From Acidobacteriota bacterium (GTDB lineage: Bacteria > Acidobacteriota > Terriglobia > 2-12-FULL-54-10), in contig JADFGZ010000001.1 of NCBI GenBank assembly GCA_022567475.1, positions 1 to 54,459 on the forward strand: a stretch of DNA of 54,459 nt, in the 5' to 3' direction. Position 1 is the first letter of the stretch. Every line of letters starts with the position of its first letter. A program made the translations under genes and the position numbers. This document shows positions 7,294 through 54,459 of the stretch, one piece after another. The notes below the pieces were generated by a model, which was given only the letters and a program-made list of their open reading frames with translations, ran no database searches and was not told the DNA's origin.

Positions 7294-7348
7294 CCGTGCC
7301 AGCCTGGCTCCGGCAGGGCAAGGGAACGTCTGCGGAGAGAGCATACCG

Positions 7349-12908: not shown

Positions 12909-13122
12909 AAAGAACTCCGGCGGTGAACGGCTCTGAATCGACGGCGAAGCCTTCCCCACCCTGGGGGGATATCTACTGATAATAAATCTCTTCAGCGAGC
13001 TTGACAAGAGGGACATTCGCGATCTTCTTTTCGGCGGTGCTCTTTACAGCACGCCGCCGGTCTGCTATTTTGCAGCCTTAGTTCTCGCATCTTGGGTTGT
13101 AGTGGTTGAGGACTGTTTAAAG

Positions 13123-16100: not shown

Positions 16101-17727
16101 TGGAACCAGCGTGGCGGGGACGGCGGAGGTGCCGCGCGTGGAGGTAACAGCGAACGCCGGCGGGCTGAGCGCGGGGCAGTACGGCGGGCTGATTCAGATC
16201 GACGCGCCGGGAGCGAGCAACTCGCCGCAGTTTGTGAGCGTGACGCTGAACGTGCTGGCGGCGGGAACCAATCCGGGGATTCAGGTGCGGCCGAGGGGCT
16301 TGATCTTCGTGCGGGAGGCGGGGACCTCCTCGCCGGGCTCGCAAACGGTGCAGGTGGCGACGGCGGCTCCGGGCAGCCTGGAAGTGGTGGCGATTCCGGG
16401 AACCTTCCAGGGTGGGAACTGGCTGGAGGCGGTGCCGAGGAACGTGACGTTCTCGGCGGGGGAACCGAGGACGATCACGGTGCAACCGAAACTGGGCACG
16501 CTGGCTGCTGGAGAATACTTCGGGGCGCTGACGCTGCTGTTCAGCGACCGGACGTCGCAGACGGTGAACGTGCTGTTTGTGGTGACACCGGCCGTAAGCC
16601 CGGCATCGGCGACGGTATCGAGCGTGGAACCGTTGCGCTCGCCCGGCGGTGCGGCGCAGCAGCATTGCGTAGCGCAGAAGCTGTTTACCACAGGCCGGAG
16701 TTTGGGAAGCAATTTTGCCTCGCCGGTGGCGTGGCCGAGCCGGATCGAGGCGCAGGTAAAGGATGACTGCGACAACCTGGTGTCGGATGCGGTGGTGGTC
16801 GTCAGTTTCTCCAACGGCGACCCGCCGCTGGCGCTGCTTCCCCTGGGCCGGGGGATCTATGAAGGCACGTGGAGGCCGGTGCAAAGCGGCGCGGTGCGGA
16901 TCACGGTGAGGGCCGAGCGGACGGCTCTGACGGCGGCGGAGGCGGTGCTGGACGGTCAGGTGACGGACAATCCGGCAGCGCCGGCGTTGTTTGCGGGTGG
17001 GATCGTGAACGCGGCGAGTTTTGCTCCGAACGAAGCGCTGGCGCCGGGCAGCATCGTCTCGGTGTTTGGGCGAAACTTGGCCGAGGGGCTGAACCTGGCC
17101 ACGGAGTTGCCGCTGAGCAGGAGGCTGGGCGGGGCGACGCTGGTGGTGGGCGGGATCGAGCAACCGCTGTTTTTCTCGAGCGAGGGACAGATCAACGCGC
17201 AACTGCCGTTTGATCTGCAGCCGAACAGCCGTCCGCAGGTGGTGGTGCGGACGCAGCGGGGAAGCGGGGCGGAAGTGATCGGGGTGCCGGAGCCGATCAC
17301 GATTGCGGCGGCTAGGCCGGGGATCTTTGCGCTGAATGCCGCGGGCACGGGCCAGGGGGCCATACTGATTGCGGCAACGGGAGAGGTGGCGGCGGCGAGC
17401 GGAAGCATTCCCGGGCGGGCGGCGCGGCCCGCCAACAGCGGAGATTTCCTTTCGATCTTCTGCACCGGACTGGGGGCGGTCACGAACCCGCCGGCGAGCG
17501 GAGCCCCGGCGGCAGGCGATCCGCTGTCGATAACGATGGCGACCCCAAGCGTAACGATAGACGGGGTGCCGGCGAGGGTGACGTTCTCCGGGCTGGCGCC
17601 GGGCTTTGTAGGGCTCTATCAGGTGAACGTGGAGGTTCCCCAGGAAGTCTCCCCCGGCGCGGCGGTCCCCCTGATGCTCACCATCAGCGGCGTCCCCTCC
17701 AACACCGTGACCATTGCGGTCGAGTAG
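13123..17727 (+). CDS. Giant secreted NHL-repeat protein: 12 NHL blades, about 4 BACON/Ig-like domains and a TIGR03437-like C-terminal domain
   Basis: Signal-like 'AVIVGLAALLFLAVPSLSRAQG'. Twelve repeats of '..GDGGPAT.A.L..P.GVAVDAAGNLYIAD..N.RIRKV...G.I.TVAG'. Four repeats of the type '...W.AQA.T..GG.WL.V.P..G'. Tail 'GIVNAASF...PGSIVSVFG.NL...GLYQVNVEVP...TISGVPSNTVTIAVE' is typical of the Solibacter-type C-terminal domain. Confidence 0.85.
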   Translation: MPRWQMHLSALIMLPRLKIAGGNLLCRAVIVGLAALLFLAVPSLSRAQGVISTVAGTTWSFSGDGGPATDAPLGFLRGVAVDAAGNVFAADSDNHLVVKISPAGVLTVVAGNGFAGYSGDGGPATSASLFSPFDVAVDSAGNLFIADRDNHLIRKVGADGMITTVAGVGLPDFFGDDGPALFAALDGPTGVAVDAAGNIYIADRNNNLVRKVGADGIITTVVGNGDFSFAGDGGLATDAALDPQGVAVDAAGNLYVADNVNARIRKIDTSSGIITTVAGTGEKGFSGDDGPATSAMLNIPNDVAVDGAGNLFIADLLNDRIRKVDLNGIITTVAGNGVDSFAGDGGPATAASLNEPDDMAVDAAGNLYIADTINSRIRKVASADGTIATLAGNNEFKFAGDGGPGTLAALDLPQGIAVDAAGNLFIADQENHRIRKLSPDGTITTVVGNGVFSFSGDGGQAVDASLGRPIDVAVDAAGNLYIAEKFNNRVRKVNTTGIITTVAGDGSFGFSGDGGQAINASLDTPLAVAVDGSGNLYISDNGNNRVRMVDANGIITTVAGNGDFFLIFDDPVPATSSEVDPLGLAIDAAGNLYIADNFNELVRKVDTGGIISTVAGDGFFGFSGDGGPATSASLNEPTDVAVDAAGNLYITDNFNERVRMVDTDGIISTVAGDGFSGFFGDGGSATSASLASPTGVAVDGAGNLYIAGSESDRIRKVSVAAPAFSVSPAQFSFSAPAGAPVGAAQQLAVGSSLTGLAWSAQAATQSGGNWLLLSPSLGAAPGSIDVSVDAGSLATGSYTGTVTVTAPGASPSTQVVAVDLTVTAAAAAELAVEPVAMTFEAASGFGNPPAQELRIGNAGGGTLNWTAQAATVAGGSWLSVSPVSGTASAISPAMVEISANVAGLAAPAVYSGSIVVEGGSSGTKTVAVTLLLTQATQTIQLSQSGLLFTGVEGGGVAPVQTFGIANAEQGTMSWTAQATTVSGGGWLTVTPASGTSVAGTAEVPRVEVTANAGGLSAGQYGGLIQIDAPGASNSPQFVSVTLNVLAAGTNPGIQVRPRGLIFVREAGTSSPGSQTVQVATAAPGSLEVVAIPGTFQGGNWLEAVPRNVTFSAGEPRTITVQPKLGTLAAGEYFGALTLLFSDRTSQTVNVLFVVTPAVSPASATVSSVEPLRSPGGAAQQHCVAQKLFTTGRSLGSNFASPVAWPSRIEAQVKDDCDNLVSDAVVVVSFSNGDPPLALLPLGRGIYEGTWRPVQSGAVRITVRAERTALTAAEAVLDGQVTDNPAAPALFAGGIVNAASFAPNEALAPGSIVSVFGRNLAEGLNLATELPLSRRLGGATLVVGGIEQPLFFSSEGQINAQLPFDLQPNSRPQVVVRTQRGSGAEVIGVPEPITIAAARPGIFALNAAGTGQGAILIAATGEVAAASGSIPGRAARPANSGDFLSIFCTGLGAVTNPPASGAPAAGDPLSITMATPSVTIDGVPARVTFSGLAPGFVGLYQVNVEVPQEVSPGAAVPLMLTISGVPSNTVTIAVE
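13267..15275 (+). repeat. Twelve tandem ~56-codon NHL repeat units (coding repeats)
   Basis: The core 'AVDAAGN[LI][YF]IAD' recurs 12 times at roughly 170-nt spacing, which would give two six-bladed propellers. Confidence 0.8.
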
Positions 17728-22475: not shown

Positions 22476-23672
22476 TCATCCTCCCGTCCGCTTTCCGGAG
22501 CCGCTCCCGTGGTAGAGGGGAGAAAGTTCCCGCAGGCGATTCACCGCCTCCACCACCCGGTCCTTCACATAGTCCACCTCTTCCTCCGTATTGAACCGGC
22601 CCAACCCAAAGCGGATGGAGGACTGGATCAGCTCCTCGCTGATCCCTAGCGCCTTCAGGACGTGGCTCGGCTCCACGGCCGCCGACGTGCAGGCCGAGCC
22701 GGTGGAGAGGGCGACGTCATGGACGCCCATCAGCAGGGATTCGGCCTCCACGCAGGCAAAGCTCAGGTTCAGGTTGTGAGGCAGCCGCTTGGTTTCGTCT
22801 CCGTTGAGATAGACCTCATCGAGCCCCGCCAGAATGCCGTTCTTCAGCCGGTCTCGCAGCTTTCGCAAACGCTCTGACTCGGCGTCCATCTGCCCGGCGC
22901 AAATCCGGCAGGCCTCGCCCAGGCCCACAATGCCCGGCACGTTCAGGGTGCCGGAGCGCATGCCGCGCTCGTGGCCGCCGCCCTCGATCATCGGCGGCAA
23001 CGCCACACGGGGGTTTTTCCGCCGGATGTAGAGCCCCCCGATTCCCTTCGGCCCATACATCTTGTGGGCGGTAAACGACAGCAGGTCAATGTTCATCTTC
23101 TCTACGTCCACCGGCACATGGCCCACGGCTTGCGTGGCATCCGTGTGGAACAGGACTCCGTTTTCCCGAGCCAGGCGGCCGATCTCCGCCACGGGATGAA
23201 TCGTGCCGATTTCATTGTTGGCGAACATGACGGTGATCAAGACGGTCTGTGCGCTGATTGCCCGGCGCACATCGTCCGGGTCCACCAGCCCGTTGCGGTC
23301 CACCGGCAAGTAAGTGACACGGCAGCCGGAGCGTTCCAGCCGCTTGCAAGTGTCGAGCACCGCATTGTGTTCGGTGGCAACCGTGATGATGTGATTGCCG
23401 CGCTCATGGTGCAGCTCCGCCACTCCCCGGATGGCCAGATTGTCGGACTCGGTGGCGCCGGAAGTGAAAATGATCTCTTTGGGGCGGGCGCCGATCAGTT
23501 GAGCCGCTTGTTTCCGGGCCAGCTCGACCGCCGCTTCCGCCTCCCATCCGAAGGAGTGCTTGCGGCTGGCTGCGTTGCCGAATTTCTGAAGGAAATAAGG
23601 CGTCATGGCCTCAAAGACCCGAGGGTCCACGGGGGTCGTGGCGTGATGGTCCATATAGATCGGCAGCTTCAT
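22476..23672 (-). CDS. iscS: Cysteine desulfurase (IscS/NifS family, PLP-dependent)
   Basis: '[15 protein letters not shown]', '[13 protein letters not shown]', PLP-Lys '[20 protein letters not shown]', active-site loop 'STGSACTSA', C-terminal '[15 protein letters not shown]'. Confidence 0.9.
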
Positions 23673-39107: not shown

Positions 39108-41414
39108 ATGCTATTGGCGGTTGCAGTCCTTTCCGGTTTTGTGATGGCGCTCGCTGCGCCGTGGCTGCACCGGATTGCGCGGAGCACTTCCGGGTGGGTG
39201 CTGGCGCTGTTTCCTGTGGCTCTGACTGTCTACTTCGCCGGCCAGGCGGGCAGGGTGGCGGCGGGCGAGGTTTTAGCGGTCAGCATCGATTGGGTGCCCA
39301 GCCTCGGCATCGCTCTGTCGTTCTACCTGGACGGATTGAGCCTGCTGTTCGCGCTGATGATCAGCGGCATTGGCGCGCTGGTGGTGGTCTACGCTGGCGG
39401 ATATCTGGCAGGGCACGCTCACCTGGGCCGGTTCTACGCCTTCCTGTTGATGTTCCTGGCCTCCATGCTGGGGCTGGTTCTCGCAAATAACGTGATCACG
39501 CTGTTCGTATTTTGGGAGCTGACCAGCGTAAGCTCCTATCTGCTGATCGGCTTTGAACACGAGAGGGAAGCGGCGCGGCAGGCGGCTCTGCAGGCGCTGC
39601 TGGTGACGGGGCTCGGCGGGCTGGCGCTGCTGGCCGGGCTGCTTTTGCTGGGGCAAGCCGGAGGAAGCATGGAACTCTCCGAGTTGCTGACCCGCGGAGA
39701 AGCGATCCAGGCGCACCCCTTTTACGCGCCGATTCTGCTGCTGATCCTGGCCGGCGCTTTCACCAAGTCGGCCCAGTTTCCGTTCCACTTCTGGCTGCCG
39801 AGCGCGATGGAAGCGCCCACGCCGGTCAGCGCCTATCTGCATTCGGCGACCATGGTCAAGGCCGGAATCTACTTGCTGGCGCGGTTCAACCCGGTGCTGG
39901 GGGGAACGGAGCTTTGGTTTTATATCGTCACCGCCGCCGGAGCTGCCACGATGCTGATTGGCGCATACCTGGCCTTGCAGCAAAGCGACCTGAAGCGAAT
40001 CCTGGCCTATTCCACCATGAGCGCGCTGGGAATGATGGTGCTGCTGCTTGGGCTCGGCACGGAGCTGGCCGTAAAGGCGGCTATTGTTTCGATACTGGTT
40101 CACGCGTTGTACAAAGGCGCGCTGTTTCTGGTTGCTGGGGCGGTGGACCATGAGACCGGCACGAGAGATGTGGACCGGCTCGGTGGACTGCGGCGCGCCA
40201 TGCCTATCACGGCGGCGGCGGCGGCGCTGGCCGCACTTTCCATGGCCGGGCTTCCGCCTCTGTTCGGCTTCATCGGCAAGGAGATGGTCTATGAGGCGGT
40301 TTTTGAAGCACCAACCGCTGTTGTTCTTTTGACCGGCGTGGTTGTCTTGTCGAGCATGTTCCTTCTGGCCGTGGCCGGCGTCGCAGGATTGCGGCCCTTT
40401 TTCGGAGAACGGGCCTCCACGCCCAAACATCCGCACGAGGCGCCGCTGAGTTTATGGCTCGGTCCATTCTTGCTGGCGGGACTGGGTTTGTTCAGCGGGC
40501 TGTTTCCGGGCGCCGCCGGATGGCTTGTTTCGCCCGCTGTCGCAGCCACCTGGGGGCAATCCACCGGCGTCGAGTTGGCGCTGTTTCATGGATGGAGTCC
40601 CGTGCTGCTTCTCAGCGCTATCACCGTCGCCGGAGGTCTCGGCCTTTTTGCCGGCCGTAGTGCATGCCGCCGGGCGGCGTCCCGACTCGCTATCGGTTCC
40701 CGGTGGGGGGCCACGCGTTGGTATGAACTGGCGCTCGATGGCATCAACAGGCTGGCTCGGGCGCAGACCCGCTTCCTGCAGAGTGGCTACCTGCGGTACT
40801 ACTTGCTGACGATCATCGCGACGATGCTTGGGCTGACCGCCTATACGCTGCTGAGCCGGGCCGGGCTGCCCGTTCCGCAGGGTAGCTTGCAGGTTCCCTT
40901 ATACCAAGCGGTCCTGGCGGGGTTGATCCTGCTGGCAGCCCTGGCGGCGGTGCGCTTGCAAACGCGTTTGGGAGCGGTGGCGGCGCTGGGCGTCGTCGGG
41001 TATGGCGTCGCTTTAATCTTTGTCTTGTTCGGCGCGCCGGACCTGGCGATGACGCAATTCCTGGTGGAGACGCTGACCGTCATTCTGCTGGTGCTGGTGC
41101 TGTATCACCTGCCGCGTTTCGCGACTCTTTCGACCAGGCGCGAGCGGGTTCGGGACATGGCGGTGGCGCTGCTGGCCGGAGGGTTGATGACGGCGCTCGT
41201 ATTGGCCGCTGCCGCGGTCCAACCCCAGCTTGAAGTTTCCTCTTATATGGCCGATCACAGCGCGGCACTGGCGCACGGGCGCAACGTGGTCAATGTCATC
41301 CTGGTGGATTTTCGCGGGCTCGACACGTTTGGCGAGATCACGGTTTTGGCCGTCGTCGGCATTGGAGTTTACTCGCTGCTCAAGCTGCGAATCCGGAAAG
41401 GAGACCGTCCGTGA
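39108..41414 (+). CDS. mrpA: Na+/H+ antiporter subunit A (MrpA/MnhA, NuoL-like with MrpB-like extension)
   Basis: 768-aa polytopic protein with NuoL/ND5-type motifs ('[14 protein letters not shown]', '[37 protein letters not shown]'). First gene of a seven-gene overlapping operon. Confidence 0.9.
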
Positions 41415-41824
41415 GTTCCCTGATCCTGCGCACGGCCACGCGTCTCCTGAAGCCGTTGATGCTGTTTTTTTCTGTTTTCGTGCTGCTGCGCGGCCATAAC
41501 GAGCCCGGCGGCGGTTTCGCGGGCGGGCTGATGGCGGCGGCGGCCTTTGCGCTCTATACCATCACCTTTGACGTGCCCTCGGCGCGCTCTGCGCTGCGGA
41601 TTGACCCGCACAATCTTGTCGGAGCGGGACTGCTGCTGGCTGCCATCAGCGGCGGCATTTCCCTCCTGCAAGGACGGCCCTTTCTGACCGGGCAATGGAT
41701 TGCCTTGCCTGTGCCCGGCGTCGGCGAGGTGGCTCTGGGCACGGTGCTTTTGTTTGATACCGGCGTCTACATGGTGGTGCTGGGCGTGACCTTGCTGATT
41801 ATCTGGTCGCTCGCGGAGGAGTGA
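41411..41824 (+). CDS. mrpB: Na+/H+ antiporter subunit B (MrpB/MnhB)
   Basis: 137-aa, 4-TM protein with '[16 protein letters not shown]'. GTGA overlap with mrpA. Confidence 0.85.
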
Positions 41825-41825
41825 G

Positions 41826-42173
41826 ATGAACACCTGGATGGCATTCGTCATTGGCGGCCTCTATGCCGCGGGTTTGTACATGATGATGCGGCGCAGCATC
41901 GTGAAACTCATCATCGGCCTGGCGCTGCTGAGCCATGCGGCGAACCTGCTGATCTTCACGGTGGGCGGGCTCACGCGCGGGCGGCCTCCTCTGATCGCGG
42001 CGGGGGAAACCAGCCTGGCGGCTCCTTTCGCGGATCCGATCCCCCAGGCGCTGGTTTTGACGGCGATTGTCATCAGCTTTGGAGTCCTGGCGTTCGCGCT
42101 GGTGCTGGTGCATCGCACCCACCAGACGGTCGGCACGGACGACCTCGACAACTTGAAGGCGACCGATACATGA
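41826..42173 (+). CDS. mrpC: Na+/H+ antiporter subunit C (MrpC/MnhC, NuoK-like)
   Basis: 115-aa, 3-TM protein with '[10 protein letters not shown]' and '[16 protein letters not shown]'. Confidence 0.85.
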
Positions 42174-43705
42174 ACGTGTTGTTGGTGCTCCCTATATTAA
42201 TTCCGTTGGTGACGGCAGCCGTCTCGTTGCTGGCCTGGAGGCGTCCGCGCTGGCAACGCTGGCTGGGCATTGGCGGAGCGGCCGCGTTGCTGGCGGCCAG
42301 CTTGGCGCTGCTCGAAAGCGTCCGGAACGGCGGCATCCAGACAGCCCAGATGGGAGACTGGCCTGCTCCTTTCGGCATCACTCTGGTTGCCGACCTGTTT
42401 TCCGCGATCATGGTGGTGATGGCCGGGTTGGTGGGTTTCGCGGTGGTGGTGTACTCTACCGCCACCGTGGATCACCGGCGGGAATCGTTCGGGTACTATC
42501 CGCTGCTGCACATCCTGCTGATGGGCGTCTGTGGCGCCTTCCTGACCGGCGACATTTTCAACCTCTATGTATGGTTTGAAGTCATGCTGATCGCCTCCTT
42601 TGTGCTGCTGGCGCTGGGCGGGGAGCGCGAACAGTTGGAAGGCGCCTTCAAGTACGTCACGCTCAACCTGATGTCCTCGGCGTTGTTTCTGGCGGCGGTG
42701 GGAATCCTCTACGGCGTGGCGGGCACGCTGAACATGGCCGACCTCGCCCGAAAGCTGCCCCAGGTGGAGCAATCCGGTTTGGTGACGACGCTGGCGATGC
42801 TGTTCCTGGTGGCGTTCGGCATCAAGGCGGCGGCCTTCCCCTTGTTCTTTTGGCTTCCGGCTTCCTATCACACCCCGCCGGTTGCCGTGTCGGCCCTCTT
42901 CGCGGGCCTGCTGACCAAAGTCGGCGTGTACGCGCTGATCCGCGTTTTCACGCTGCTCTTCACGCAGGAGGTATCCTATACCCACACGCTGATCCTGGCC
43001 GTGGCCGGCCTGACCATGGTGACGGGTGTTCTGGGGGCGATGGCGCAAAATGAATTCCGGCGCATTTTGTCGTTCCACATCGTCAGCCAGATCGGATATA
43101 TGTTGATGGGTTTGGGGCTGTTCACGGTGGCGGGACTGGCCGGCTCGATTTTCTACATCATGCATCACATCATTGTAAAAACGAATTTGTTCCTGATTAG
43201 CGGTGTGGCGAATCATTTCAGGGGCACGTACCAGTTGAAGGAGCTGGGAGGACTCTACCGCGCCTACCCCGGCTTGGCCGTCTTGTTCCTGATCCCGGCG
43301 CTGTCGCTGGCGGGTGTCCCGCCGCTGTCTGGGTTCTTTGCGAAGCTGGGGCTGCTCCAGGCCGGATTGGCAACCGGGCAGTACGCCATTGTTGCCACGG
43401 CGTTAGGCGTCAGCTTGCTCACTTTGATTTCAATGACCAAGATCTGGGCGGAGGCTTTTTGGAAACCTGCGGCCGCACCGTCCGTAGACCCGCCTGCCGC
43501 CGGGACGGGAACGCCGCAGGATCCGTCCCAACATGATCCGCCCAAAGGGAGTCTCGCTTTGTTCGCGCCCGTGGTCGTATTAGCGGTTTTGACGCTGACC
43601 ATGGGGTTGGTCGCCGAGCCGTTCGTCGGCCTGGCGATCCAAGCCGCCCATCAATTGATGAATCCGGCTGGCTACATCGAGGCTGTTCTGGGAGGCCGGC
43701 CATGA
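42170..43705 (+). CDS. mrpD: Na+/H+ antiporter subunit D (MrpD/MnhD, NuoN/M-like)
   Basis: 511-aa polytopic protein with '[15 protein letters not shown]' and '[40 protein letters not shown]'. ATGA overlap with mrpC. Confidence 0.9.
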
Positions 43706-44187
43706 GCGCGTTTCTGTGGAACCTCCTGCTGGCAATTATCTGGGTTGCCTTGACGGAGCAATTCACTCCGGGGAACCTGATGGTCGGCTTCGGATTAGGC
43801 TACCTGATTTTGGCCTTTGCGCAACTTGTCATGGGGAAGGAGAAGGGGAAGTCGAACTACGTCTCCAAGGTGCGACAGGTTTTCGGATTTGCTCTCTATT
43901 TCCTGTGGGAGCTCGTTCTGGCGAACCTCCGGGTGGCTTACGACGTGGTGACGCCGACTCACCACATGCGGCCGGGGGTGATCGCGATCCCGCTCGACGC
44001 ACGAACCGACGCAGAGATCACTGTGCTGGCCAATTTCATCACGCTTACGCCCGGCACTCTCAGCCTGGACGTGTCGGAGGATCGCAAGGTGCTGTATATC
44101 CACGCCATGTACATTCATGACCGCGAAGCGCTCCGGCGCGAAATTAAGAGCGGGCTGGAACGGCGGGTTTTGGAGGTGATGCGATGA
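43702..44187 (+). CDS. mrpE: Na+/H+ antiporter subunit E (MrpE/MnhE)
   Basis: 161-aa protein with '[13 protein letters not shown]', '[24 protein letters not shown]'. ATGA overlap. Confidence 0.85.
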
Positions 44188-44471
44188 CTCCCGGTGAGCT
44201 GGGACCGCTTTCGACCGCGATTCGTGTGGCGTGGGTCATGCTGAGCGCGGGCCTCGTGCTGGCTTTTTTTCGCCTGGTCCGAGGGCCCAGTCTGCCGGAC
44301 CGTGTGGTCGCGCTGGACCTGACGGCGACCCTGGTGGTGGGAATGATTGCCGTGGATGCCATTGCCAGCCACCAGCCGGTGATCCTGGACGCTGCCATCG
44401 TCGTTTCCTTGGTCGCCTTTGTAGGCACGGTGGCCTTTGCCCATTACGTGGAAAAGAGAGGGTCGGAATGA
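44184..44471 (+). CDS. mrpF: Na+/H+ antiporter subunit F (MrpF/MnhF)
   Basis: 95-aa, 3-TM protein with '[17 protein letters not shown]'. ATGA overlap. Confidence 0.85.
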
Positions 44472-45605: not shown

Positions 45606-45789
45606 TCCTGGTATCTTGCGGTAAATCCTTCATCATCTGTCAAGTCTGTTTATCCTGAGCCCGCAAAGCACGGGGTTTTTAGGGTATTTTGAACAACATT
45701 TTGAACCTAAATTTCGGGTCCGGTCAGTTATGATAGACGCTCACTACGAGTAGCACAAAAAATCGGTCCGTTCAGGAGACAAAACCAAT

Positions 45790-47175
45790 ATGACCCAATC
45801 ATACATTCTGCGACAGAATAGAGGCATTGTTGCGATTCTGGCTGTCGTAACCGCAGTAGCCGCCTGGGTGCTATTTGCCGGGAAAGCGAAACCGCAGGAA
45901 TGGAACCGAGCATCCGAGACCACTGTGCGAAGACCCACTGGTTTTCCGCAACTGGTCTCCCAGGAGCCATTGCCGGGCATGGATGGGATGATGTGCCAGT
46001 GGGAGCCCGTCAGTGCCAGCGCCACTTTGTTGGCTGCTCTTCGGCAGGAGCAAACGGCGGCTGGCACGGCGGCGCCGGCCGGGGATGCTGATCGAGCCCC
46101 TTTGCGGGTCATACGGGATAGTTATCCAACCTATAGCGCCGTAGCAGTCGATACCAATTCCAATGAAGTCTATCTCCAGGATGAAAACCTGTTCGGCTAC
46201 AAGGTCTTCAACCGGCTGGACAATACTCCTCCCTCGGCCAGTTTTACCGAGCCCAAACGTATGGTCGGGGGATTTAATACCAAGCTGGAGTTCAACTGCG
46301 GGCTTTACGTGGACCCGGAGACCGGGGATGTCTATTCGGTTGCCAATGATACGGTCGACACGCTGGTCATCTTTCCTCGCGACGCCAGGGGGAACGTGGC
46401 TCCCAAGAGAGCGCTGCGAACCCCGCACGGCACCTTCGGCATCGCCGTGGATGAGGGGAACCAGGAGTTGTTCCTCACGATCGAGCATGACAATGCGGTG
46501 GTGGTGTATCGCAAGATGGCCGAAGGGGATGAAGCCCCCCTCCGCCTCCTCCAGGGAGACCGGACTCGCCTGGCAGACCCCCACGGGATTGCAGTGGACA
46601 CGAAAAACAATTGGATGTTTGTCAGCAACCACGGCTCGGTTCATCAAGACCGTGCCGGTGGAGGGTCTGTGCCGCCGAACTGGCCGCTGGGGACGGATGT
46701 ACGCGGCTCCGGAAAGTTTTTGCCTCCCTCGATTTCGGTCTATCCCCTCAAAGCGAGCGGGGACACTCCTCCGCTGCGTGTTATCGAAGGCCCCAATACG
46801 CGGTTAAACTGGCCGGCAACGGTGTCCTTGGATCAGGAGCGCGGGGATCTCTACGTTGCGAACGATGCCGATGACTCGGTCCTGGTCTTCCGCACGACCG
46901 ATCACGGCGACGTGGCCCCCAGGCGGGTCATCAAAGGCCCCCAGACAGGCATCAAGAATCCAACGGGCGTGTTTGTCGACCTGAAGAACGAGGAGCTGTG
47001 GGTGTCCAATATGGGCAACCATTCGGCCACGGTCTATCCTCTGTCGGCGAATGGCGATGTCGCGCCGCTGCGGACCATCCGTAGCGCGCCGCTCGGCAAG
47101 CTGGCGCTGGCGATTGGAAATCCCGGAGCGGTAGGCTATGACAGCAAGCGGGAAGAAATTCTAGTGCCGAACTGA
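45790..47175 (+). CDS. Membrane-anchored beta-propeller repeat protein, N-terminal part (7 repeats), ending at in-frame TGA; probably continuous with 47176-48003
   Basis: TM anchor 'GIVAILAVVTAVAAWVLFAG'. Seven repeats of the type 'G[DN]VAP.R.I.GP.T.[LI]..P.G[IV].VD....E[LI][FWY]V.N'. The TGA at 47173-47175 falls mid-repeat. Confidence 0.75.
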   Translation: MTQSYILRQNRGIVAILAVVTAVAAWVLFAGKAKPQEWNRASETTVRRPTGFPQLVSQEPLPGMDGMMCQWEPVSASATLLAALRQEQTAAGTAAPAGDADRAPLRVIRDSYPTYSAVAVDTNSNEVYLQDENLFGYKVFNRLDNTPPSASFTEPKRMVGGFNTKLEFNCGLYVDPETGDVYSVANDTVDTLVIFPRDARGNVAPKRALRTPHGTFGIAVDEGNQELFLTIEHDNAVVVYRKMAEGDEAPLRLLQGDRTRLADPHGIAVDTKNNWMFVSNHGSVHQDRAGGGSVPPNWPLGTDVRGSGKFLPPSISVYPLKASGDTPPLRVIEGPNTRLNWPATVSLDQERGDLYVANDADDSVLVFRTTDHGDVAPRRVIKGPQTGIKNPTGVFVDLKNEELWVSNMGNHSATVYPLSANGDVAPLRTIRSAPLGKLALAIGNPGAVGYDSKREEILVPN

Positions 47176-48003
47176 GTGGCCCACCCGCAGATTGCGGCCT
47201 TCACCAGGCTGGCGAAGGAAAATGAAGCGCCCACGAGGCTGATAGCCGGACAAAAAACTCTGCTGGCCCGCACGATGCACGACATCCGCTACAACGCGAT
47301 CCATGATGAGTTCGTGGTGAACAATCCCTTTGCCCAGGCGATCCTGGTGTTCCGGGGAGGAGCGGATGGGGAGGAAGCGCCGATTCGGGTCATCCAGGGT
47401 CCCAGCACGCAGTTGAGCGGGTCAAGCCGGCTGGAAGTGGATGCTGTGAACGACGAAATCATCGTTCCCGGGGGAGATAGGATTTTGGTTTATCCCAGGG
47501 AGGGGAATGGCGATGTGGCTCCCATTCGAGTGCTCCGTGGTCCCGATACCCAGTTGAGGGGCGCCCAGGCGGTTGCCGTCGATGCAGTCCGCAACTTGCT
47601 TGTGGTAGCGGTCGGCAATCAGCGACGGAGGGGCGAAGGGCCCACGGGGTCTCTGTTGATATTCAACCGTACGGACAGCGGAAACGTCAAGCCGCGTGCT
47701 GTGATCACGGGTCCGAAGACGGGCATCATCCGGTTCAACCAGATTCGCGTTTACCCGCCGAAAGGCTGGATCATCGCGACTCAACCGGGACCCCGTGACG
47801 ATCAGGAGCCGGAAGGCACTTTCGTTGGTGTTTGGAGCATCAACGACAACGGAGACGTTCCGCCCCGCTGGAAGATTGGAGGACCAAAGAGCACGCTGAA
47901 GAAGCCCCGTGGAGTGGCTCTTGACCCCAAGAATAAAGAACTCATTGTTGCGGACATGAGGTTGAACTCCGTGCTGATCTACTATTTCCCGGAAATATTT
48001 TAG
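47176..48003 (+). CDS. Beta-propeller repeat protein, C-terminal part (5 repeats of the same family); same frame as and contiguous with 45790-47175
   Basis: Starts (as GTG) at the codon directly after the TGA, with no obvious Shine-Dalgarno. Repeats 'GEEAPIRVIQGPSTQL', 'GDVAPIRVLRGPDTQL', 'GNVKPRAVITGPKTGI', 'GDVPPRWKIGGPKSTL' continue the upstream series. Confidence 0.7.
   Translation: MAHPQIAAFTRLAKENEAPTRLIAGQKTLLARTMHDIRYNAIHDEFVVNNPFAQAILVFRGGADGEEAPIRVIQGPSTQLSGSSRLEVDAVNDEIIVPGGDRILVYPREGNGDVAPIRVLRGPDTQLRGAQAVAVDAVRNLLVVAVGNQRRRGEGPTGSLLIFNRTDSGNVKPRAVITGPKTGIIRFNQIRVYPPKGWIIATQPGPRDDQEPEGTFVGVWSINDNGDVPPRWKIGGPKSTLKKPRGVALDPKNKELIVADMRLNSVLIYYFPEIF
47185..47217 (+). promoter_or_regulatory. 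Two stem-loops 10-45 nt downstream of the in-frame UGA (SECIS-like/recoding candidate), copy 1
   Basis: Hairpin 1: CCGC-AGAUU-GCGG (47185-47197). Hairpin 2: CUUCACC-AGGCU-GGCGAAG (47199-47217), a 7-position stem with one A/C mismatch. The G-containing apical loop starts 31 nt after the UGA. Folded by eye only. Confidence 0.4.
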
Positions 48004-48093
48004 CCCCCTTGTTTCTGAGGAAGGGAAGAATGATTGAAGTCGTAAATGGTTGGATTGGATGATATCCATCTGGCTGGGCAAGAAGGAGGAGTT

Positions 48094-48484
48094 ATGAAAG
48101 CGTTACCATCCTTTCGAGGGGCGGTGTTTCGCTTGGCCACTGCATTTTGGATTCGTGTCTTTTTTGTGATGCCCACACTCACGTTGGAAGCCCAAAGCGG
48201 ACATCCCCTATTGGGAGGGGCCAGGGGGCTGGTGCGGACTGCCTCAGGCGCCCATCTGCAAGGACCTCTACAAGCGCCCCACGCTGATGTCGGGAAAACC
48301 GGTGAATGATGAAACCGTGGCTGAGAAGATTAGAAATGGCGGGCCGCTCATGCCCGGCTACCGTTACACATTGAGTGACCAAGACATGGCCGATTTACTG
48401 AGTTACCTCCGTGAAGGAGGATGCTGTTGGGAAGACAAAGAAGAGCATGATCCACCCCCGAATCCCCGATACAAAGCGCGGTAA
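48094..48484 (+). pseudogene. Small c-type-cytochrome-like relic (frameshifted, no CxxCH)
   Basis: The signal-like N-terminus 'MKALPSFRGAVFRLATAFWIRVFFVMPTLTLEAQ' is in one frame (from 48094). A class I cytochrome c C-terminal half 'KIRNGGPLMPGYRYTLSDQDMADLLSYLR' is in the +1 frame (to 48484). No CxxCH occurs in any forward frame across 48094-48300. Confidence 0.4.
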
Positions 48485-48528: not shown

Positions 48529-50292
48529 ATGGAGATGGCTAAAAAAATTGCCAGGACTATCCGTATGGGGGCGTTTTGTTGGTTGCTGTCGATCAGTGTT
48601 TCCTACGCGCAACAAGCCTTGGTGGTTCGCGGAGGAACTTTGATAGACGGAAACGGCGGGGCTCCGTTGGAGAACGTGGACATTCTGATCGAGGGGGATC
48701 GGATCAGCGAAATCCGCATTGGCGGATTCAGCCGTGTCCCTCCCAACGCGGAGATCATTGACGCCCGTGGCAAGTTCATCCTGCCGGGCCTGCAAGATTT
48801 TCATCTGCATTACCGGGGTTGGATGCCTCCCTTGTTTATCAATCACGGCATCACCACCATCCATGACATTGGGAATAGCCCTCCGCAGTGGATCCTGGCT
48901 CAGCGCGAGATGCTCCAACAAGAAAGAATTGTAGGGCCCCGACTCTATGCGGCTGTCCTCAATTTATACGGGAGGCCCCGAAGGGATGTTGCCATTGAGA
49001 GCAGACTCCCGGATATGATTTTTTTCGAAACGGTGGCAGAAGCCAGGTCTTGGGCGGAAAAAGCCGTGGAGTTGAAAGCCGACTACATCAAAGTTCACGA
49101 TGGATTTACAGGCGAGATGTTATTAGCCGTGGCGCAAGTGGCCAAACAGCATGGTCTGCCCATTGTGGGGCATGTTGCCCCCGTGCTCGACGCCTTTCAA
49201 GCGGCGGAACTTGGTCAAAATGAATTTGAACACAGTACAGGGGTCGGCCGGGCCATTACACTGGATTTGGATGAGTTGCGCAGCTTGAGGAAGGAATGGG
49301 AGGAGGCTCTGATAGGAAGAGCGCGAACCGTTTTCGAGGCTTTGGCGGTGGATTTTTACAGCGTGGATCCAGTCAAGGAAGAACGGCTCATTCACGTTCT
49401 GGTTGAGAAAGGTATTTTTCTCGAAGCGGATTGGGTGACCCCTTCCCGGAACATCACCCCCCGAAAAAAAGAGTGGGCGTTTCAGGACCTGGTGTTTTTT
49501 TCCAACCCGGAGCTGTCCTTTGTCCCCTTGGGTGACCGGCTTCGCTGGCTGGATTATTCTCCTTGGGAACATTTTTCTGAGGATTTGAAAGCCAAGTTGA
49601 TTCGCAGTTTGGCGAACTGGAAAAATTTCATCGTCAAATTTTCCGCAGCGGGCGGCAAGGTAATCGTAGGGACCGCTTCGCCCAACGCCATCCCTGGAAT
49701 CAGTGTTCACAGGGATATGCAGTTGCTGGTGGATGCGGGACTGCCTCCGATGAAAGCGCTTCAGGCGGCCACCCGGAATATTGCCGAGTTGGCGGGACTG
49801 TTGGATGACCTGGGAACCGTCGAGGCAGGGAAATATGCAGACCTGTTAATCATTGACGGAAATCCGTTGGAAGATATTTCCAACACTCAGAAAATAGCCC
49901 ACGTCATCAAGGGCGGAAAAAAAATTGACCGGCGATATTCTGCCGATTTCAGAAATCCGATTCCCACGCCCGTGATGGTCGATGAAGGCGGCCATAACAA
50001 TCCAAAGCCGGCCATTACCGGGATGGACCCGGCCGTTTTCACTCAGGGCGATCCAGAAACAGTCGCCGAGATCAGGGGGAGAGGGTTCACGATAGGTTCT
50101 GTTGCCTACGTCAATCATCATGCCGTCCGGACGAAATTCAAAAGCCCGGAACTGCTGGAAGTGGTGCTGTCTTCAACCCTCTTATCACAGGTGGGAACCT
50201 ATCCTGTTCAGGTGATTAATCCGCATCCGTTGCCCCCGCTGGAAAATGCAGGGGATTCAAATAAATTGATGGTCATCGTTAAATTCCGATAG
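48529..50292 (+). CDS. Secreted metal-dependent amidohydrolase with C-terminal IPT/TIG-like domain
   Basis: Signal-like 'MGAFCWLLSISVSYAQQ'. 'VVRGGTLIDGNGG', 'LPGLQDFHLH' (HxH metal motif), 'AATRNIAELAGL', 'GTVEAGKYADLLIIDGNPLEDI'. The last ~100 aa resemble an Ig-like IPT domain ('ITGMDPAVFTQGDPETVAEIRGRGF...GTYPVQVINP'). Confidence 0.8.
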   Translation: MEMAKKIARTIRMGAFCWLLSISVSYAQQALVVRGGTLIDGNGGAPLENVDILIEGDRISEIRIGGFSRVPPNAEIIDARGKFILPGLQDFHLHYRGWMPPLFINHGITTIHDIGNSPPQWILAQREMLQQERIVGPRLYAAVLNLYGRPRRDVAIESRLPDMIFFETVAEARSWAEKAVELKADYIKVHDGFTGEMLLAVAQVAKQHGLPIVGHVAPVLDAFQAAELGQNEFEHSTGVGRAITLDLDELRSLRKEWEEALIGRARTVFEALAVDFYSVDPVKEERLIHVLVEKGIFLEADWVTPSRNITPRKKEWAFQDLVFFSNPELSFVPLGDRLRWLDYSPWEHFSEDLKAKLIRSLANWKNFIVKFSAAGGKVIVGTASPNAIPGISVHRDMQLLVDAGLPPMKALQAATRNIAELAGLLDDLGTVEAGKYADLLIIDGNPLEDISNTQKIAHVIKGGKKIDRRYSADFRNPIPTPVMVDEGGHNNPKPAITGMDPAVFTQGDPETVAEIRGRGFTIGSVAYVNHHAVRTKFKSPELLEVVLSSTLLSQVGTYPVQVINPHPLPPLENAGDSNKLMVIVKFR

Positions 50293-50387: not shown

Positions 50388-51725
50388 ATGCACCGGAGAA
50401 TTTATTTGCGGCCAAGGGTCGCCGTAGTCGTGTTGATGGGCTGGTTGGGCGTCTTCGCCGTTTGGGTGCTCCTCGCCGGGCAGGCGAAACAGCAAGGGTT
50501 CAGCAACGCATCCGAGGCCGCTTTGCGAAGACCCACGGGTTCTCCCCAACTGGTCTCCGTCGAGCCGTTGCCGGTGGCGGACGGACAGATGTGCCAGTGG
50601 GTTCCCGCCAGCGCCAGCACAACCCTGGTGGCTGCGCTTCGGCAGGAGCAACCGGCGGCTGGCGCGGCGTCGTCCGTGGATGCCGACCGAGCCCCTCTGC
50701 GGATCATCCGGGATACCTATCCGACCTACAGCGCCATCGCAGTCGACACCAATACGGATGAGGTCTATCTGCAGGACGAGAATCTGTTTGGCTACAAGGT
50801 CTTCAATCGCCTGGACAATACCCCGCCCAACGCTAGCTTTACTGAACCCAAGCGTATGGTGGGGGGAATCAAGACCAAGCTGGAATTCAATTGCGGCCTG
50901 TACGTGGACCCGAAGACGGGAGACGTTTATTCGGTCAACAACGACACGGTGGACACGATGGTCGTCTTTCCTCGCGACGCCAGGGGGAATGTATTGCCCA
51001 AGCGAGAGCTAAAAACCCCGCACAGGACCTGGGGTATTGCGGTGGATGAGGAGGCCCAAGAGCTTTTTCTCACGGTCGAGGAGCCTCCCCAAGTGGTGGT
51101 CTATCACAAGATGGCTCAGGGAGACGATCAGCCCATCCGCGTCCTGGAGGGGAACCGCACGGAGCTTGAGGATGCCCACGGCATTGCCATTGACACGAAG
51201 AACAATTGGATGTTTGTCAGCAACCACGGCAGTGTCAACGACGGCGGGATTGCCGGTTCCGGCAGGTTTGAACCTCCCTCGATCACGGTCTATCCGCTGA
51301 GGGCGAGCGGGAACACTCCTCCGCTGCGTGTCATCGAAGGTCCCAATACGCGGTTAAACTGGCCGGCAGCGATGTCGCTGGATCAGGAGAACGGGGAACT
51401 CTACTTGGCGAACGATGCCGAGGACTCCATCCTGGTCTTCGGCACGACCGATAGCGGCAACGTGGCCCCCCGGAGAGTCATCAAAGGCCCCAAGACGGGC
51501 ATCAAGAACCCCACAGGCATCTTTCTCGACTCGAAAAACGATGAGGTGTGGGTCTCCAATATGGGTAACCACACGGCTACTGTCTATCGGCGGACGGCGA
51601 GCGGCAACGTCGCGCCGTTGCGCACCATCCGCAGCGCGCCGCTGGGCAAGCGGGCCTTGGCGATTGGGAATCCGGGGGCCGTGGGCTATGACAGCAAACG
51701 GGAAGAGATACTGGTGCCGAACTGA
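50388..51725 (+). CDS. Paralogue of 45790-47175: membrane-anchored beta-propeller protein, N-terminal part, ending at in-frame TGA
   Basis: Collinear with copy 1 (same TM anchor, 'CQW' and 'LEFNCGLYVDP' cysteines, same seven repeats) with a short deletion relative to copy 1. TGA at 51723-51725. Confidence 0.75.
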   Translation: MHRRIYLRPRVAVVVLMGWLGVFAVWVLLAGQAKQQGFSNASEAALRRPTGSPQLVSVEPLPVADGQMCQWVPASASTTLVAALRQEQPAAGAASSVDADRAPLRIIRDTYPTYSAIAVDTNTDEVYLQDENLFGYKVFNRLDNTPPNASFTEPKRMVGGIKTKLEFNCGLYVDPKTGDVYSVNNDTVDTMVVFPRDARGNVLPKRELKTPHRTWGIAVDEEAQELFLTVEEPPQVVVYHKMAQGDDQPIRVLEGNRTELEDAHGIAIDTKNNWMFVSNHGSVNDGGIAGSGRFEPPSITVYPLRASGNTPPLRVIEGPNTRLNWPAAMSLDQENGELYLANDAEDSILVFGTTDSGNVAPRRVIKGPKTGIKNPTGIFLDSKNDEVWVSNMGNHTATVYRRTASGNVAPLRTIRSAPLGKRALAIGNPGAVGYDSKREEILVPN

Positions 51726-52550
51726 GTGGCCCACCCGCAGATTGCGGTCTTCGCCAGGCTGGCGAAGGAGAATTCAGCGCCCACAAGGCTGATTGCGGGA
51801 CAAAAGACGCTGCTCGCCCGCACTATGCACGACATCCGCTATGACGCGATCCATGATGAATTCTTGGTGAACAATCCTTTTGCCCAGGCGGTCCTGGTGT
51901 TCCGGGGAGGAGCCGACGGCGAGGAAGCGCCAATCCGGGTGATCCAGGGTCCCCGCACGCAGTTGGGGTTTTCCGGGCGGCTGGACGTGGATGCGGTGAA
52001 TAACGAAATTTTCGTTCCCGGAGGAGACCGGATTTTAGTCTATCCGCGCGAGGGAAATGGCGATGTGGCTCCCCTCCGCGTGATCCGCGGGCCGGACACG
52101 CTCTTGCGCAGCGCCGGAGCGCTCGCTGTCGATCCTGTCAATCATTTGCTTGTGGTAGGCACCAACAGGGGGTTTGCGAGGGGAGAAGGGAATGGGTCGC
52201 TGTTGATCTACAACCGCACGGACAACGGAAACGTCAAGCCGCGCGGTGTGATCGAAGGCCCCCAGTCGGGCATCATACGGATCAACCAACTCCAAGTGTA
52301 TCCACCCAAGGGCTGGATCGTGGCGAGCCAGCCCGGTGTGGGCTACGAGCAGGAGCCGGAAGGCGCTTTCATCGGCGTGTGGAGCGTGAACGATAATGGC
52401 GACGTGCCGCCGCGCTGGGTGATCGGAGGACCGGAAAGCACCTTGAAAAAACCGCGCGGGGTAGCTTTAAACCCCAAGAATAAAGAGATCATTGTTGCCG
52501 ACATGCGGCTCAACGCCGTGCTGACGTACTATTTTCCGGAAATTTTTTAG
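51726..52550 (+). CDS. Paralogue of 47176-48003: beta-propeller C-terminal part, contiguous and in frame with 50388-51725
   Basis: 274 codons collinear with copy 1. Same first residues 'VAHPQIA.F.RLAKEN.APTRLIAGQKTLLARTMHDIRY' and same C-terminus 'YYFPEIF'. Confidence 0.7.
   Translation: MAHPQIAVFARLAKENSAPTRLIAGQKTLLARTMHDIRYDAIHDEFLVNNPFAQAVLVFRGGADGEEAPIRVIQGPRTQLGFSGRLDVDAVNNEIFVPGGDRILVYPREGNGDVAPLRVIRGPDTLLRSAGALAVDPVNHLLVVGTNRGFARGEGNGSLLIYNRTDNGNVKPRGVIEGPQSGIIRINQLQVYPPKGWIVASQPGVGYEQEPEGAFIGVWSVNDNGDVPPRWVIGGPESTLKKPRGVALNPKNKEIIVADMRLNAVLTYYFPEIF
51735..51767 (+). promoter_or_regulatory. Stem-loops downstream of the in-frame UGA (SECIS-like/recoding candidate), copy 2
   Basis: Hairpin 1: CCGC-AGAUU-GCGG (51735-51747). 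Hairpin 2: CUUCGCC-AGGCU-GGCGAAG (51749-51767), a perfect 7-bp stem with a 5-nt loop containing GG. Confidence 0.45.
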
Positions 52551-52853: not shown

Positions 52854-54459
52854 CTACTCACTGGGGAAATTGACAATGAAGTATGCCGCGTTGGAGGGGC
52901 TCCCCCCGGAGCCGGGATTCACGGCCGTCACCGCGTAAGTACCCACGTTTCGCAAGAGCGCAGCATCCACCGTTGCCGTCAAGAGGGAATTGCTGACGAA
53001 CGTTGTCGGCAGGTCGGTCGTGTCAAAGCGGATGAAAGACCGCGGGTTAAATCTCTTCCCGGTTACCTGAACGGTCACTGCTGTATCGCCGGCCCGCGCT
53101 ATTCCTGGTGTGATGCGTGAGATTTCCGGCCCCAGATATTCGAGCGGAGTATTTGCATAGGTCGTGCGCGGCAAGGGGTTGCGGAAATTCGGGTCCAAAC
53201 GAGTGTCTAAGACCTTGCCGTCGAGGATCACCGTGCGAATATTCTGAGTGACGCGGATGTCCGCCAACGGATCCCCTTCAATGATAATCAGGTCGGCGAG
53301 CTTTCCGGGCTCCACAGTCCCCAGATCGTTCTCCTGACGCATAAACTCCGCCGACCACTTTGTAGAAGCCAGAATCGCCTGCATCGGAGTCAGGCCCGCA
53401 TTCACCAGGGCCTCCATCTCGACATGCATCGCTAAGCCGGCAATGTTGGTCGCGCTGGACCTGGCGCCGGTGTCCGGACCGGTGAGCACCTTGCCGCCCG
53501 CCTGGACAAACCTCCGGATAAATTCCCGAATCTTTCGGAGAGATTCCGTGCTTTGTTGTATGTCTTCTCCCGTGTCGGCGGCCTTTACCGCATTCAGCCA
53601 GTGCTCGCGTCGGGCCTCAGTAATGAACCGTGCGGAAGGGTCTTCTAATAATTTCACCACCACGTCGTACCACTCGCGGCTCTCTGGCCGGGGCCGGGTC
53701 AGGGTGGGATTGAAATAGACTCCATTTTTTACCATCAGGTCAATGAGAGGGCCGAACAACGTCGTGTCCATCTCCGCCTGCGAGTCCGGGAGTCTTCCTT
53801 CTTCCATAGCCTGAATCTTTGCCGGGTCTCCCAGCGTGGAGTGGACAACCGTCCGCGCGTGCTCAATGAACTTCATGCCAGCCAGTGTGGCTTCCCGCGC
53901 ATCCACCGCGTGGCCGACCACCTCCAACCCGGCTTTGTGTGCTTCCTCAACCACGGCTTTCAGGGATTCGGTGCTTAGGCCTTCGTAAACCTTGATCCCA
54001 TCCACGCCCTGCTGGATCAGCTTCCGGGTGGCCAACCGTGCTTCCTCTACATTCCGTGTATGGATCCGATAGGCTGCCCGCGCCGCGAAAGTAATCGGAT
54101 TGCTGCGTTCCGGCGGTCCATCAATGATCGCTCCAGTCACGAACAGGCGGGGACCTTTAATCTTTCCTCTTTGCAATGCCTCGCGCTGAGCCAGAATCCA
54201 GTCTGTGGGATTAGCCGTATCGAAGATCGTCGTCACACCATAGTGCAGGAAAAGCGGGGGCATGTAGGCCGAAATATGGACGTGGGCATCGATGAGTCCA
54301 GGGAGCACAGTTTTTCCTTCCGCCCGGATCACTCGCGCCCCGGCGGGATAAGATACATTTCCCTTGGTTCCAACCGCTTTGATCCGGGAGCCCTCAATCA
54401 CAATGACCGAATCTTGGATGGGGTCACGACCGGTTCCATCAATTAGGGTCCCTCCCTCG
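52854..54459 (-). CDS. Metal-dependent amidohydrolase with C-terminal IPT/TIG-like domain (5' end beyond window)
   Basis: 'LPGLIDAHVHISAY' (HxH), 'VVGHAVD', 'GTVEPGKLADLIIIEGDPLADI'. C-terminal 'ISRITPGIARAGDTAVTVQVTGKRF...GTYAVTAVNPG'. The reading frame stays open to the window edge (reverse complement of the edge reads '...RGGTLIDGTGRDPIQDSVIVIEGSRI'). Confidence 0.8.
   Translation of the reverse strand, partial: EGGTLIDGTGRDPIQDSVIVIEGSRIKAVGTKGNVSYPAGARVIRAEGKTVLPGLIDAHVHISAYMPPLFLHYGVTTIFDTANPTDWILAQREALQRGKIKGPRLFVTGAIIDGPPERSNPITFAARAAYRIHTRNVEEARLATRKLIQQGVDGIKVYEGLSTESLKAVVEEAHKAGLEVVGHAVDAREATLAGMKFIEHARTVVHSTLGDPAKIQAMEEGRLPDSQAEMDTTLFGPLIDLMVKNGVYFNPTLTRPRPESREWYDVVVKLLEDPSARFITEARREHWLNAVKAADTGEDIQQSTESLRKIREFIRRFVQAGGKVLTGPDTGARSSATNIAGLAMHVEMEALVNAGLTPMQAILASTKWSAEFMRQENDLGTVEPGKLADLIIIEGDPLADIRVTQNIRTVILDGKVLDTRLDPNFRNPLPRTTYANTPLEYLGPEISRITPGIARAGDTAVTVQVTGKRFNPRSFIRFDTTDLPTTFVSNSLLTATVDAALLRNVGTYAVTAVNPGSGGSPSNAAYFIVNFPSE

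Follow-up and report, generated by a model that had tools for sequence, protein, structure and literature searches.

The stretch of DNA analysed here (referred to as the window; positions 1–54,459 of contig JADFGZ010000001.1, assembly GCA_022567475.1, 54,459 nt from a terriglobial member of the Acidobacteriota) carries two paralogous candidate selenoprotein genes, each of which appears as a pair of open reading frames (ORFs) separated by an in-frame TGA. In the first of these (copy 1, 45790–48003, + strand) the TGA at 47173–47175 closes the ORF 45790–47175 and the same frame then runs on from a GTG at 47176 to a TAG at 48001–48003. A Shine–Dalgarno-like AGGAGA (45774–45779, + strand) lies 5′ of the start codon of copy 1 (ATG, 45790), and no Shine–Dalgarno motif was found before the GTG at 47176, which follows the TGA with a spacer of 0 nt. 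A sequence-only reading of the window had drawn attention to this combination of a TGA with an in-frame GTG, no spacer and no convincing ribosome-binding site, and direct inspection of the sequence bears it out. Read as one gene, on the evidence of its translation and of full-length homologues with cysteine (Cys), copy 1 would have 737 codons, encode a tandem beta-propeller and carry selenocysteine (Sec) at codon 462; the same earlier reading had proposed a single protein of about 737 residues with Sec, or a readthrough residue, at 462, and the comparison of TGA- and Cys-containing homologues and of the RNA element downstream of the UGA (see below) supports this. The second pair (copy 2, 50388–52550, + strand) reads in translation as a paralogous gene of 720 codons, and its UGA (51723–51725, + strand; codon 446) is homologous to that of copy 1.

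The two copies share the context EEILVPN*VAHPQIA around the UGA (the asterisk marks the stop) and are 75–80% identical at the amino-acid level. Over the compared 200 nt of DNA they are 94% identical, and no difference occurs in the stretch that begins 9 nt upstream and ends 22 nt downstream of the UGA. The ratio of nonsynonymous to synonymous substitution rates (dN/dS) between the copies is 0.24 upstream of the UGA and 0.17 downstream, and from the latter value it follows that the downstream part is translated and under selection.

Relatives were collected from 77 loci in GTDB representative genomes, nearly all of them metagenome-assembled genomes (MAGs) of Terriglobia or other Acidobacteria, with taxa including Solibacteraceae, Bryobacteraceae and Ca. 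Sulfopaludibacter. These loci and the window together gave 92 copies, all of which have TGA at the Sec codon and all of which have an open frame of 239–294 codons (median 275) after it. A scan of metagenomes, which was seeded with Cys forms, nevertheless returned TGA copies as well: TGA was present in 66 of 77 copies and TGC or TGT in the other 11. In all, 158 interrupted copies carry TGA and never TAA or TAG. A search with the conceptually fused protein returned two classes of relative, full-length proteins of 620–800 amino acids that are about 42–60% identical to the query, and shorter proteins (434–490 amino acids, 63–100% identical) that cover only the first 56–63% of it. The short relatives terminate without exception at …ILVP[N/T], so the gene callers had stopped at the Sec codon, and the NCBI and ENA records likewise hold a shortened form ending …ILVPN. 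With a strict motif search Cys was found at the Sec position (ILVPN-C-VAHPQIAVF) in 38 of 39 full-length proteins, the remaining one having Trp, and when 197 full-length sequences are aligned this column contains U 132 times, C 63 times and W once. The homologues of the fused protein are therefore single ORFs with either Cys or TGA at the Sec codon, as the sequence-only reading had anticipated for a selenoprotein family. The sole homologue with Trp (P0004, ILVPNWVAHPQ) comes from a 2.6-kb contig of JGI sample 3300071358; its W is probably a TGA that the gene caller translated with an alternative table, a real TGG being conceivable.

Downstream of the UGA two stem–loops had been noted at first sight, and both were found in place. 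Taking the U of the UGA as +1, hairpin 1 (CCGCA-GAU-UGCGG) occupies +13 to +25 (47185–47197, + strand) and its pairing is conserved, and hairpin 2, which covariation and model fit identify as the candidate core of a bacterial selenocysteine insertion sequence (SECIS), occupies +26 to +46 (47198–47218, + strand). Hairpin 2 has an 8-bp stem and an apical loop A34-G35-G36-Y37-U38, which in copy 1 is AGGCU at 47206–47210. The equivalent hairpins of copy 2 lie at 51735–51768 (+ strand), where hairpin 2 spans 51748–51768 with its loop at 51756–51760; the minimum free energy (MFE) fold of this hairpin has eight uninterrupted pairs, 51749–51756 with 51760–51767. The published model for bacterial SECIS elements (bSECIS) specifies a loop of 3–9 nt, a stem of 4–16 bp, a spacing of 16–37 nt and an MFE of −7.5 kcal/mol or lower, with a G within the first two loop positions that is usually followed by G or U (PMC13188914). 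Hairpin 2 agrees with this model throughout: its 5-nt loop begins A-G-G, its stem is 8 bp long, 30 nt separate it from the UGA, and its MFE is −8.6 kcal/mol in copy 1 and −12.2 kcal/mol in copy 2 (family median −10.5), being −7.5 or lower in 137 of 143 distinct family sequences. Hairpin 1 has a spacing of 14 nt, which is slightly too near the UGA for the 16–37 nt of the model, and so it is not the core element, but it may be accessory to the SECIS. No Rfam family matched the RNA element in the window.

Because folding of single sequences proved uninformative, comparative analysis was used, and the case for an RNA structure comes only from the comparison of many sequences. In a 92-sequence alignment (A4) the 13 pairs of the two hairpins were scored; 92.5% of cells hold canonical pairs, compared with 36–55% when the partners are slid by 1–3 columns, and seven of the 13 pairs show changes on both sides, values that none of 500 shuffles matched. 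For hairpin 1, 89% of cells are paired and three pairs change on both sides, as in the variant in which CCGCA..UGCGG becomes CCGAG..CUCGG. For hairpin 2 the figure is 94.6%, with compensatory changes in four pairs: pair 27–45 occurs as CG (29), AU (13), GC (10) and UA (10), pair 30–42 changes from CG to UA four times, and pair 31–41 changes from GC to CG twice, the protein changing from FAR..A to FPR..G.

Constraint on the RNA was told apart from constraint on the protein by a test of synonymous sites, with codon usage in 157 family genes as the baseline. Third codon positions just before the UGA are unconstrained (entropy 1.2–1.7 bits), and those at +15, +24, +30, +33, +36, +39 and +42 are 95–100% fixed. 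The Pro codon at +13–15 is CCG in 147 of 147 sequences, compared with 48% for Pro codons in other parts of the family genes; the Ala codon at +22–24 is GCG in 144 of 147, against 34% of Ala codons elsewhere; and the Arg codon at +34–36, which provides the G-G of the loop, is AGG in 139 of 147, against only 6.9% of Arg codons elsewhere. G35 is invariant (147/147). The follow-up thus supports the suspected SECIS element, in that hairpin 2 agrees with the bSECIS model, covaries and has frozen synonymous sites; the fold of the single sequence taken alone is not significant. Copies with Cys at the Sec position (TGC or TGT) and a decaying SECIS were seen on metagenome contigs (L078–L086, L099, L135, L157; P0008-like). 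In the copies close to the Cys form P0008 the hairpin sequence is retained yet decaying, AGG having become AGA or CGA in four of 10 and CCG having become CCA or CCT in three of 10, and in a distant Cys form (L160) the hairpin motif has been lost. This pattern fits a recent replacement of Sec by Cys followed by relaxed constraint, rather than an ancestral Cys.

The sequence-only reading had asked for the genes of Sec decoding, and here the outcome is mixed, with selB and tRNA-Sec present close to a member of the family in a related MAG of the Terriglobia and none of the machinery in the window. In that MAG (CAWJHX010000002.1, locus L076) the two genes occupy 4093–6177 on the − strand, 4–6 kb upstream of a family copy whose TGA is at 11273. 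The tRNA-Sec (4097–4188) was recognized by ARAGORN, with anticodon TCA, and by Rfam (RF01852, 72 bits against a threshold of 47), and the adjoining selB (4222–6177) scores 415 bits against TIGR00475 (cutoff 242), so the equipment for Sec decoding is present in at least one genome with a family copy. Neither selA nor selD was seen at this locus; the gene at 6246–7838 (530 amino acids) has no NCBIfam match and is not recognisable as selA. As a separate observation, the window itself encodes a class-V aminotransferase at 22476–23672 (− strand; Aminotran_5, 297 bits). The class-V aminotransferase fold family includes cysteine desulfurases and selenocysteine lyases, and a link of this gene to selenium metabolism is possible.

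From these comparisons the UGA in the split ORF pairs is very probably a selenocysteine codon, and with almost the same confidence we interpret each pair as one selenoprotein gene encoding about 720–740 residues. Several observations weigh against this interpretation. Neither tRNA-Sec nor any sel gene was found in the 54-kb window by ARAGORN, Rfam and NCBIfam scans (there is no tRNA in the window at all), the stem of hairpin 2 in copy 1 contains an A·C mismatch (MFE −8.6), and single-sequence folds of 47173–47235 and variants of it are no better than those of shuffled sequences (z −0.3 to −1.0). The obvious alternative is that the UGA is a real stop and GTG 47176 a real start, with products of about 50 and 30 kDa made by translational coupling and assembling afterwards. 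Gene callers do annotate the locus in this way, with …ILVPN as the end of about 60 database proteins, and the GTG follows directly after the stop, but a genuine stop would be expected to drift among TAA, TAG and TGA, so that its fixation as TGA in 158 of 158 interrupted copies argues against one. The GTG, moreover, encodes the Val of the conserved motif C/U-V-A-H-P, which the uninterrupted Cys forms also have; it has neither a Shine–Dalgarno motif nor a spacer; the Cys homologues are single chains in which a break at this point would land inside a blade; and the hairpin is constrained at synonymous sites. We consider this arrangement very unlikely. Hardly more probable is readthrough of the UGA with a standard amino acid (Trp or Cys, by a near-cognate tRNA) that is stimulated by the hairpin and involves no Sec. 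The W of homologue P0004 would suit it, but 63 sequences have Cys, not Trp, aligned with the UGA, both the geometry and the G-G loop of the hairpin are those of a SelB-binding SECIS, and selB and tRNA-Sec lie near a family copy at L076.

An in-frame stop is also the classic sign of a pseudogene, and a nonsense mutation, an assembly error or a sequencing artefact might produce the same picture; however, the TGA occurs in both paralogues in the window and in 156 further copies from independent assemblies, and the downstream frame is always intact and under purifying selection. The comparative data rule this explanation out, and its residual probability is negligible. The same can be said of a reassigned code that makes UGA a sense codon (table 4 or 25); nothing speaks for it beyond the in-frame UGA itself. 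The long ORFs of the window end in TAG (13), TGA (12, two being the UGAs in question) and TAA (7); TGA thus terminates 10 other long ORFs, among them mrpA and mrpD, so the genetic code is the standard one, as the sequence-only reading had maintained in treating TGA as an ordinary stop here. The aligned residue, furthermore, is Cys and not Trp or Gly, and on these two grounds a reassigned UGA was ruled out. Even taken jointly, a split gene, readthrough without Sec, a pseudogene and a recoded genome remain improbable.

If the UGA is indeed a Sec codon, SelB and Sec-tRNA(Sec) would be recruited by the in-ORF SECIS hairpin 23–43 nt after the UGA and would read the UGA (codon 462, or 446 in copy 2) as selenocysteine, and the small upstream hairpin 1 may assist hairpin 2. 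The product is predicted to consist of an anchoring helix, a flexible arm containing Cys69 and a 12-unit tandem propeller, with Sec, as part of the motif N-U-V-A-H-P-Q, in the loop that follows the second long strand of unit 7. This architecture was derived with AlphaFold2 from P0002, the Cys homologue nearest to the query (60% identity), in a model that used a 61-sequence alignment and is of good confidence [mean predicted local distance difference test (pLDDT) score 88.3, predicted template modelling (pTM) score 0.83]. The model has a helix at residues 10–32, a low-confidence arm of about 65 residues and then a continuous all-beta region of 12 repeat units, the predicted blades being four-stranded and forming one unbroken tandem propeller across the Sec position, with the Cys/Sec immediately following the second long strand in unit 7. 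The earlier count of seven repeat units before the stop and five after it does not agree with the model, which divides them into about 6.5 and 5.5 with Sec inside unit 7, but the earlier placement of the stop between two strands of one blade does, as Sec falls in a loop of that unit. As this loop joins two strands of unit 7 in the model, it is plausible that Sec462 faces the active surface of the propeller. In copy 1 the helix of the homologue model corresponds to the hydrophobic segment GIVAILAVVTAVAAWVLFAG (45823–45882, + strand), which is probably a signal anchor, to judge from the translation, that would hold the protein in the inner membrane with its bulk in the periplasm.

Sequence searches gave only a general classification of the protein. 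Pfam detected one NHL repeat (35.7 bits, cutoff 20) and, marginally, a Lactonase domain (22.8 bits, cutoff 21.7), and the equivalog models for 6-phosphogluconolactonase (25 bits against a cutoff of 370) and YncE (17 against 400) scored far below their cutoffs, so that the JGI names ‘YncE’ and ‘6-phosphogluconolactonase’ on homologues are generic. The repeat signature and four-stranded blades are shared with NHL-repeat, YncE and lactonase propellers (PF01436, PF10282 and PF08450), but those lack the combination seen here of 12 tandem units, an N-terminal anchor and a conserved Cys/Sec. NHLRC2 and SOQ1, which gave weak matches through their NHL blades (repeats only, E = 0.09–0.65), are NHL propellers tied to thiol redox chemistry; their redox Cys is in a separate thioredoxin domain, in contrast to the new family, in which Sec/Cys lies inside the propeller itself.

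Conservation among the 197 full-length sequences points to a small set of residues around the Sec position. U/C462, N461, R494 and T495 are conserved, as are H465 (97%) and H497 (99%), the values for H465, H497 and Q467 ranging from 94 to 99%. A second conserved cysteine, Cys69, lies in the flexible N-terminal arm (codon at 45994–45996 in copy 1, + strand) and is present in 178 of the 197 members, 14 of the others having a gap at this position; C170, by comparison, is not conserved (C in 135, S in 48). Sec generally sits at catalytic redox or metal-ligand positions, and it is from this general rule together with the conservation of C69, H465 and H497 that a redox or metal role is inferred, Sec being the presumed catalytic residue of an envelope redox enzyme. 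The simplest function would be a redox cycle in which Sec462 and Cys69 form a selenenyl-sulfide, a proposal suggested by the conserved residues that we put forward tentatively and at rather less than even likelihood. A metal centre in which Sec462 is a ligand together with His465, His497 and Gln467 (a C/U-x-x-H-x-Q loop), and not the partner of Cys69, is a somewhat more doubtful possibility. It would account for the 94–99% conservation of these residues around Sec, and Sec is used as a metal ligand by formate dehydrogenase and [NiFeSe] hydrogenase, neither of which has a thioredoxin fold (PMC13188914), but Pfam and NCBIfam revealed no metal-binding domain and the position of the conserved Cys69, in a flexible arm, would be more usual for a resolving cysteine. 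More speculative, and in our estimate improbable, is the combined idea that Sec462, His465, His497 and the Cys69 arm form a metal/redox centre in new periplasmic propeller enzymes that act on substrates imported by TonB-dependent receptors, in organisms whose selenoproteomes would be large and dominated by this one family. Some results tell against assigning any specific function to the Sec-containing propeller. No NCBIfam model scored above its cutoff and there was no match to a curated family; the PDB sequence search gave no relative beyond weak NHL-repeat matches; Foldseek against the PDB returned only generic double propellers (Utp/Pwp2, EML-type and LRP; template modelling score about 0.3); and no constant partner gene was found near the 92 copies, whose neighbourhoods are variable.

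The sequence-only reading had noted no known selenoprotein family of this type, and the sources consulted agree. The 2026 catalogue lists 119 prokaryotic selenoprotein families and subfamilies, with no propeller, NHL, lactonase or YncE entry in its Table 1 (PMC13188914); no propeller, NHL, lactonase or YncE selenoprotein appears in the papers on BSepDB and deep-Sep; literature searches found no description of such a family; and none of the NCBIfam selenoprotein models scored above cutoff. Within the sources checked, the family is therefore new as a selenoprotein, and its decoding mechanism is the standard bacterial one (UGA, in-ORF SECIS, SelB). It resembles E. coli FdhF and the consensus bSECIS in having an in-frame UGA, Cys homologues and, directly behind the UGA at a spacing of 30 nt, an in-ORF stem–loop with a small G-G loop, and it resembles SelB-decoded selenoproteins in the presence of selB and tRNA-Sec in one genome that carries it. 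The catalogued families are mostly thioredoxin-like or have UxxC/CxxU motifs (PMC13188914); in contrast to all 119, the present one has N-U-V-A-H-P-Q in a beta-propeller loop and a conserved small hairpin before the SECIS core. The TonB-dependent receptor selenoprotein described with deep-Sep in 2025 (FCYXU motif) is also a predicted cell-envelope selenoprotein, but it is the outer-membrane barrel itself, it comes from Desulfobacterota, and its fold and motif are unlike those of the new family. The unusual traits of the latter are thus its non-thioredoxin fold with N-U-V-A-H-P-Q, its probable envelope location and a massive expansion of paralogues.

Terriglobial genomes carry many Sec-form paralogues. 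Relatives are encoded by 365 stretches in GTDB representative genomes, and at E ≤ 1e-30 the N-terminal part matches 773 cluster representatives (50% identity), of which many end exactly at the Sec position. A groundwater Acidobacteria MAG (JACPPJ010000045.1, L047) has five Sec-form copies within 19 kb, with TGA at 392, 6016, 8313, 11417 and 18420, and the loci fetched from a 3.76-Mb Terriglobia chromosome, OZ240237.1, contain at least 11 TGA copies (L004, L007, L014, L015, L018, L022, L034, L051 and L073). To judge by their names, most source records are assemblies from soil or groundwater. Of the 77 genome loci, the sole copy assigned outside the Acidobacteriota is on a 4-kb contig of a Verrucomicrobiia MAG (DASPXM010000025.1, L058), a placement that could reflect a mis-binned short contig or horizontal transfer.

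Current annotation splits or shortens every member of the family, and hundreds of genes of soil and groundwater Acidobacteria would therefore be mis-annotated and their selenoproteomes underestimated. The 2006 survey recorded three families and four selenoproteins for the phylum Acidobacteria, and deep-Sep (2025) found three selenoprotein genes in the single acidobacterial genome tested. On the more speculative combined reading given above, with at least 11 Sec paralogues per genome, the selenoproteomes of Terriglobia would be among the larger bacterial ones, with one non-thioredoxin-like family dominant, and selenium would be a major and so far unrecognised trace-element need of aerobic soil bacteria that rank among the most abundant. 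The family would add the beta-propeller fold to a selenoprotein set dominated by thioredoxin-like folds and would mean that mostly aerobic heterotrophs have a selenoprotein in their cell envelope, and its 143 distinct covarying SECIS sequences should make a good model for recognition by SelB outside the Proteobacteria and Firmicutes.

The neighbourhoods of the family copies do have some recurring features. TonB-dependent-receptor-like outer-membrane proteins are encoded within 5 kb of 28 of the 92 copies, and for 14 copies such a gene is directly adjacent on the same strand; the Cys homologue P0002 lies 58 nt downstream of one. Amidohydrolases are found near 14 of the 92 copies. Both kinds of gene are common in Acidobacteria, and for this reason the link to either is weak. 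In the window copies 1 and 2 are each followed by an amidohydrolase gene (48529–50292, + strand, and 52854–54401, − strand, respectively); these two are paralogous Xaa-Pro-dipeptidase-like proteins with a C-terminal choice-of-anchor-Z repeat domain, and they alternate with the candidate selenoprotein genes. A small ORF downstream of copy 1 (48046–48309) was considered as a conserved partner and rejected, as it is not conserved elsewhere. Immediately upstream of copy 1 lies an operon for an Mrp-type multisubunit cation/proton antiporter (39108–44471, + strand), of which subunits A, D, E and F were identified; no functional connection between it and the selenoprotein genes is evident. The window also encodes a further repeat protein of 1541 amino acids (13102–17727, + strand), with many NHL/teneurin-type repeats and a BACON-like domain, which differs from the selenoprotein family and contains no in-frame stop. 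Finally, several same-strand pairs of long ORFs overlap by 200–470 nt (4531–7293/6821–8698, + strand; 25460–27070/26868–28586 and 34805–37513/37180–38823, both − strand), and these overlaps are probably due to over-extended upstream starts in the mechanically generated ORF list.

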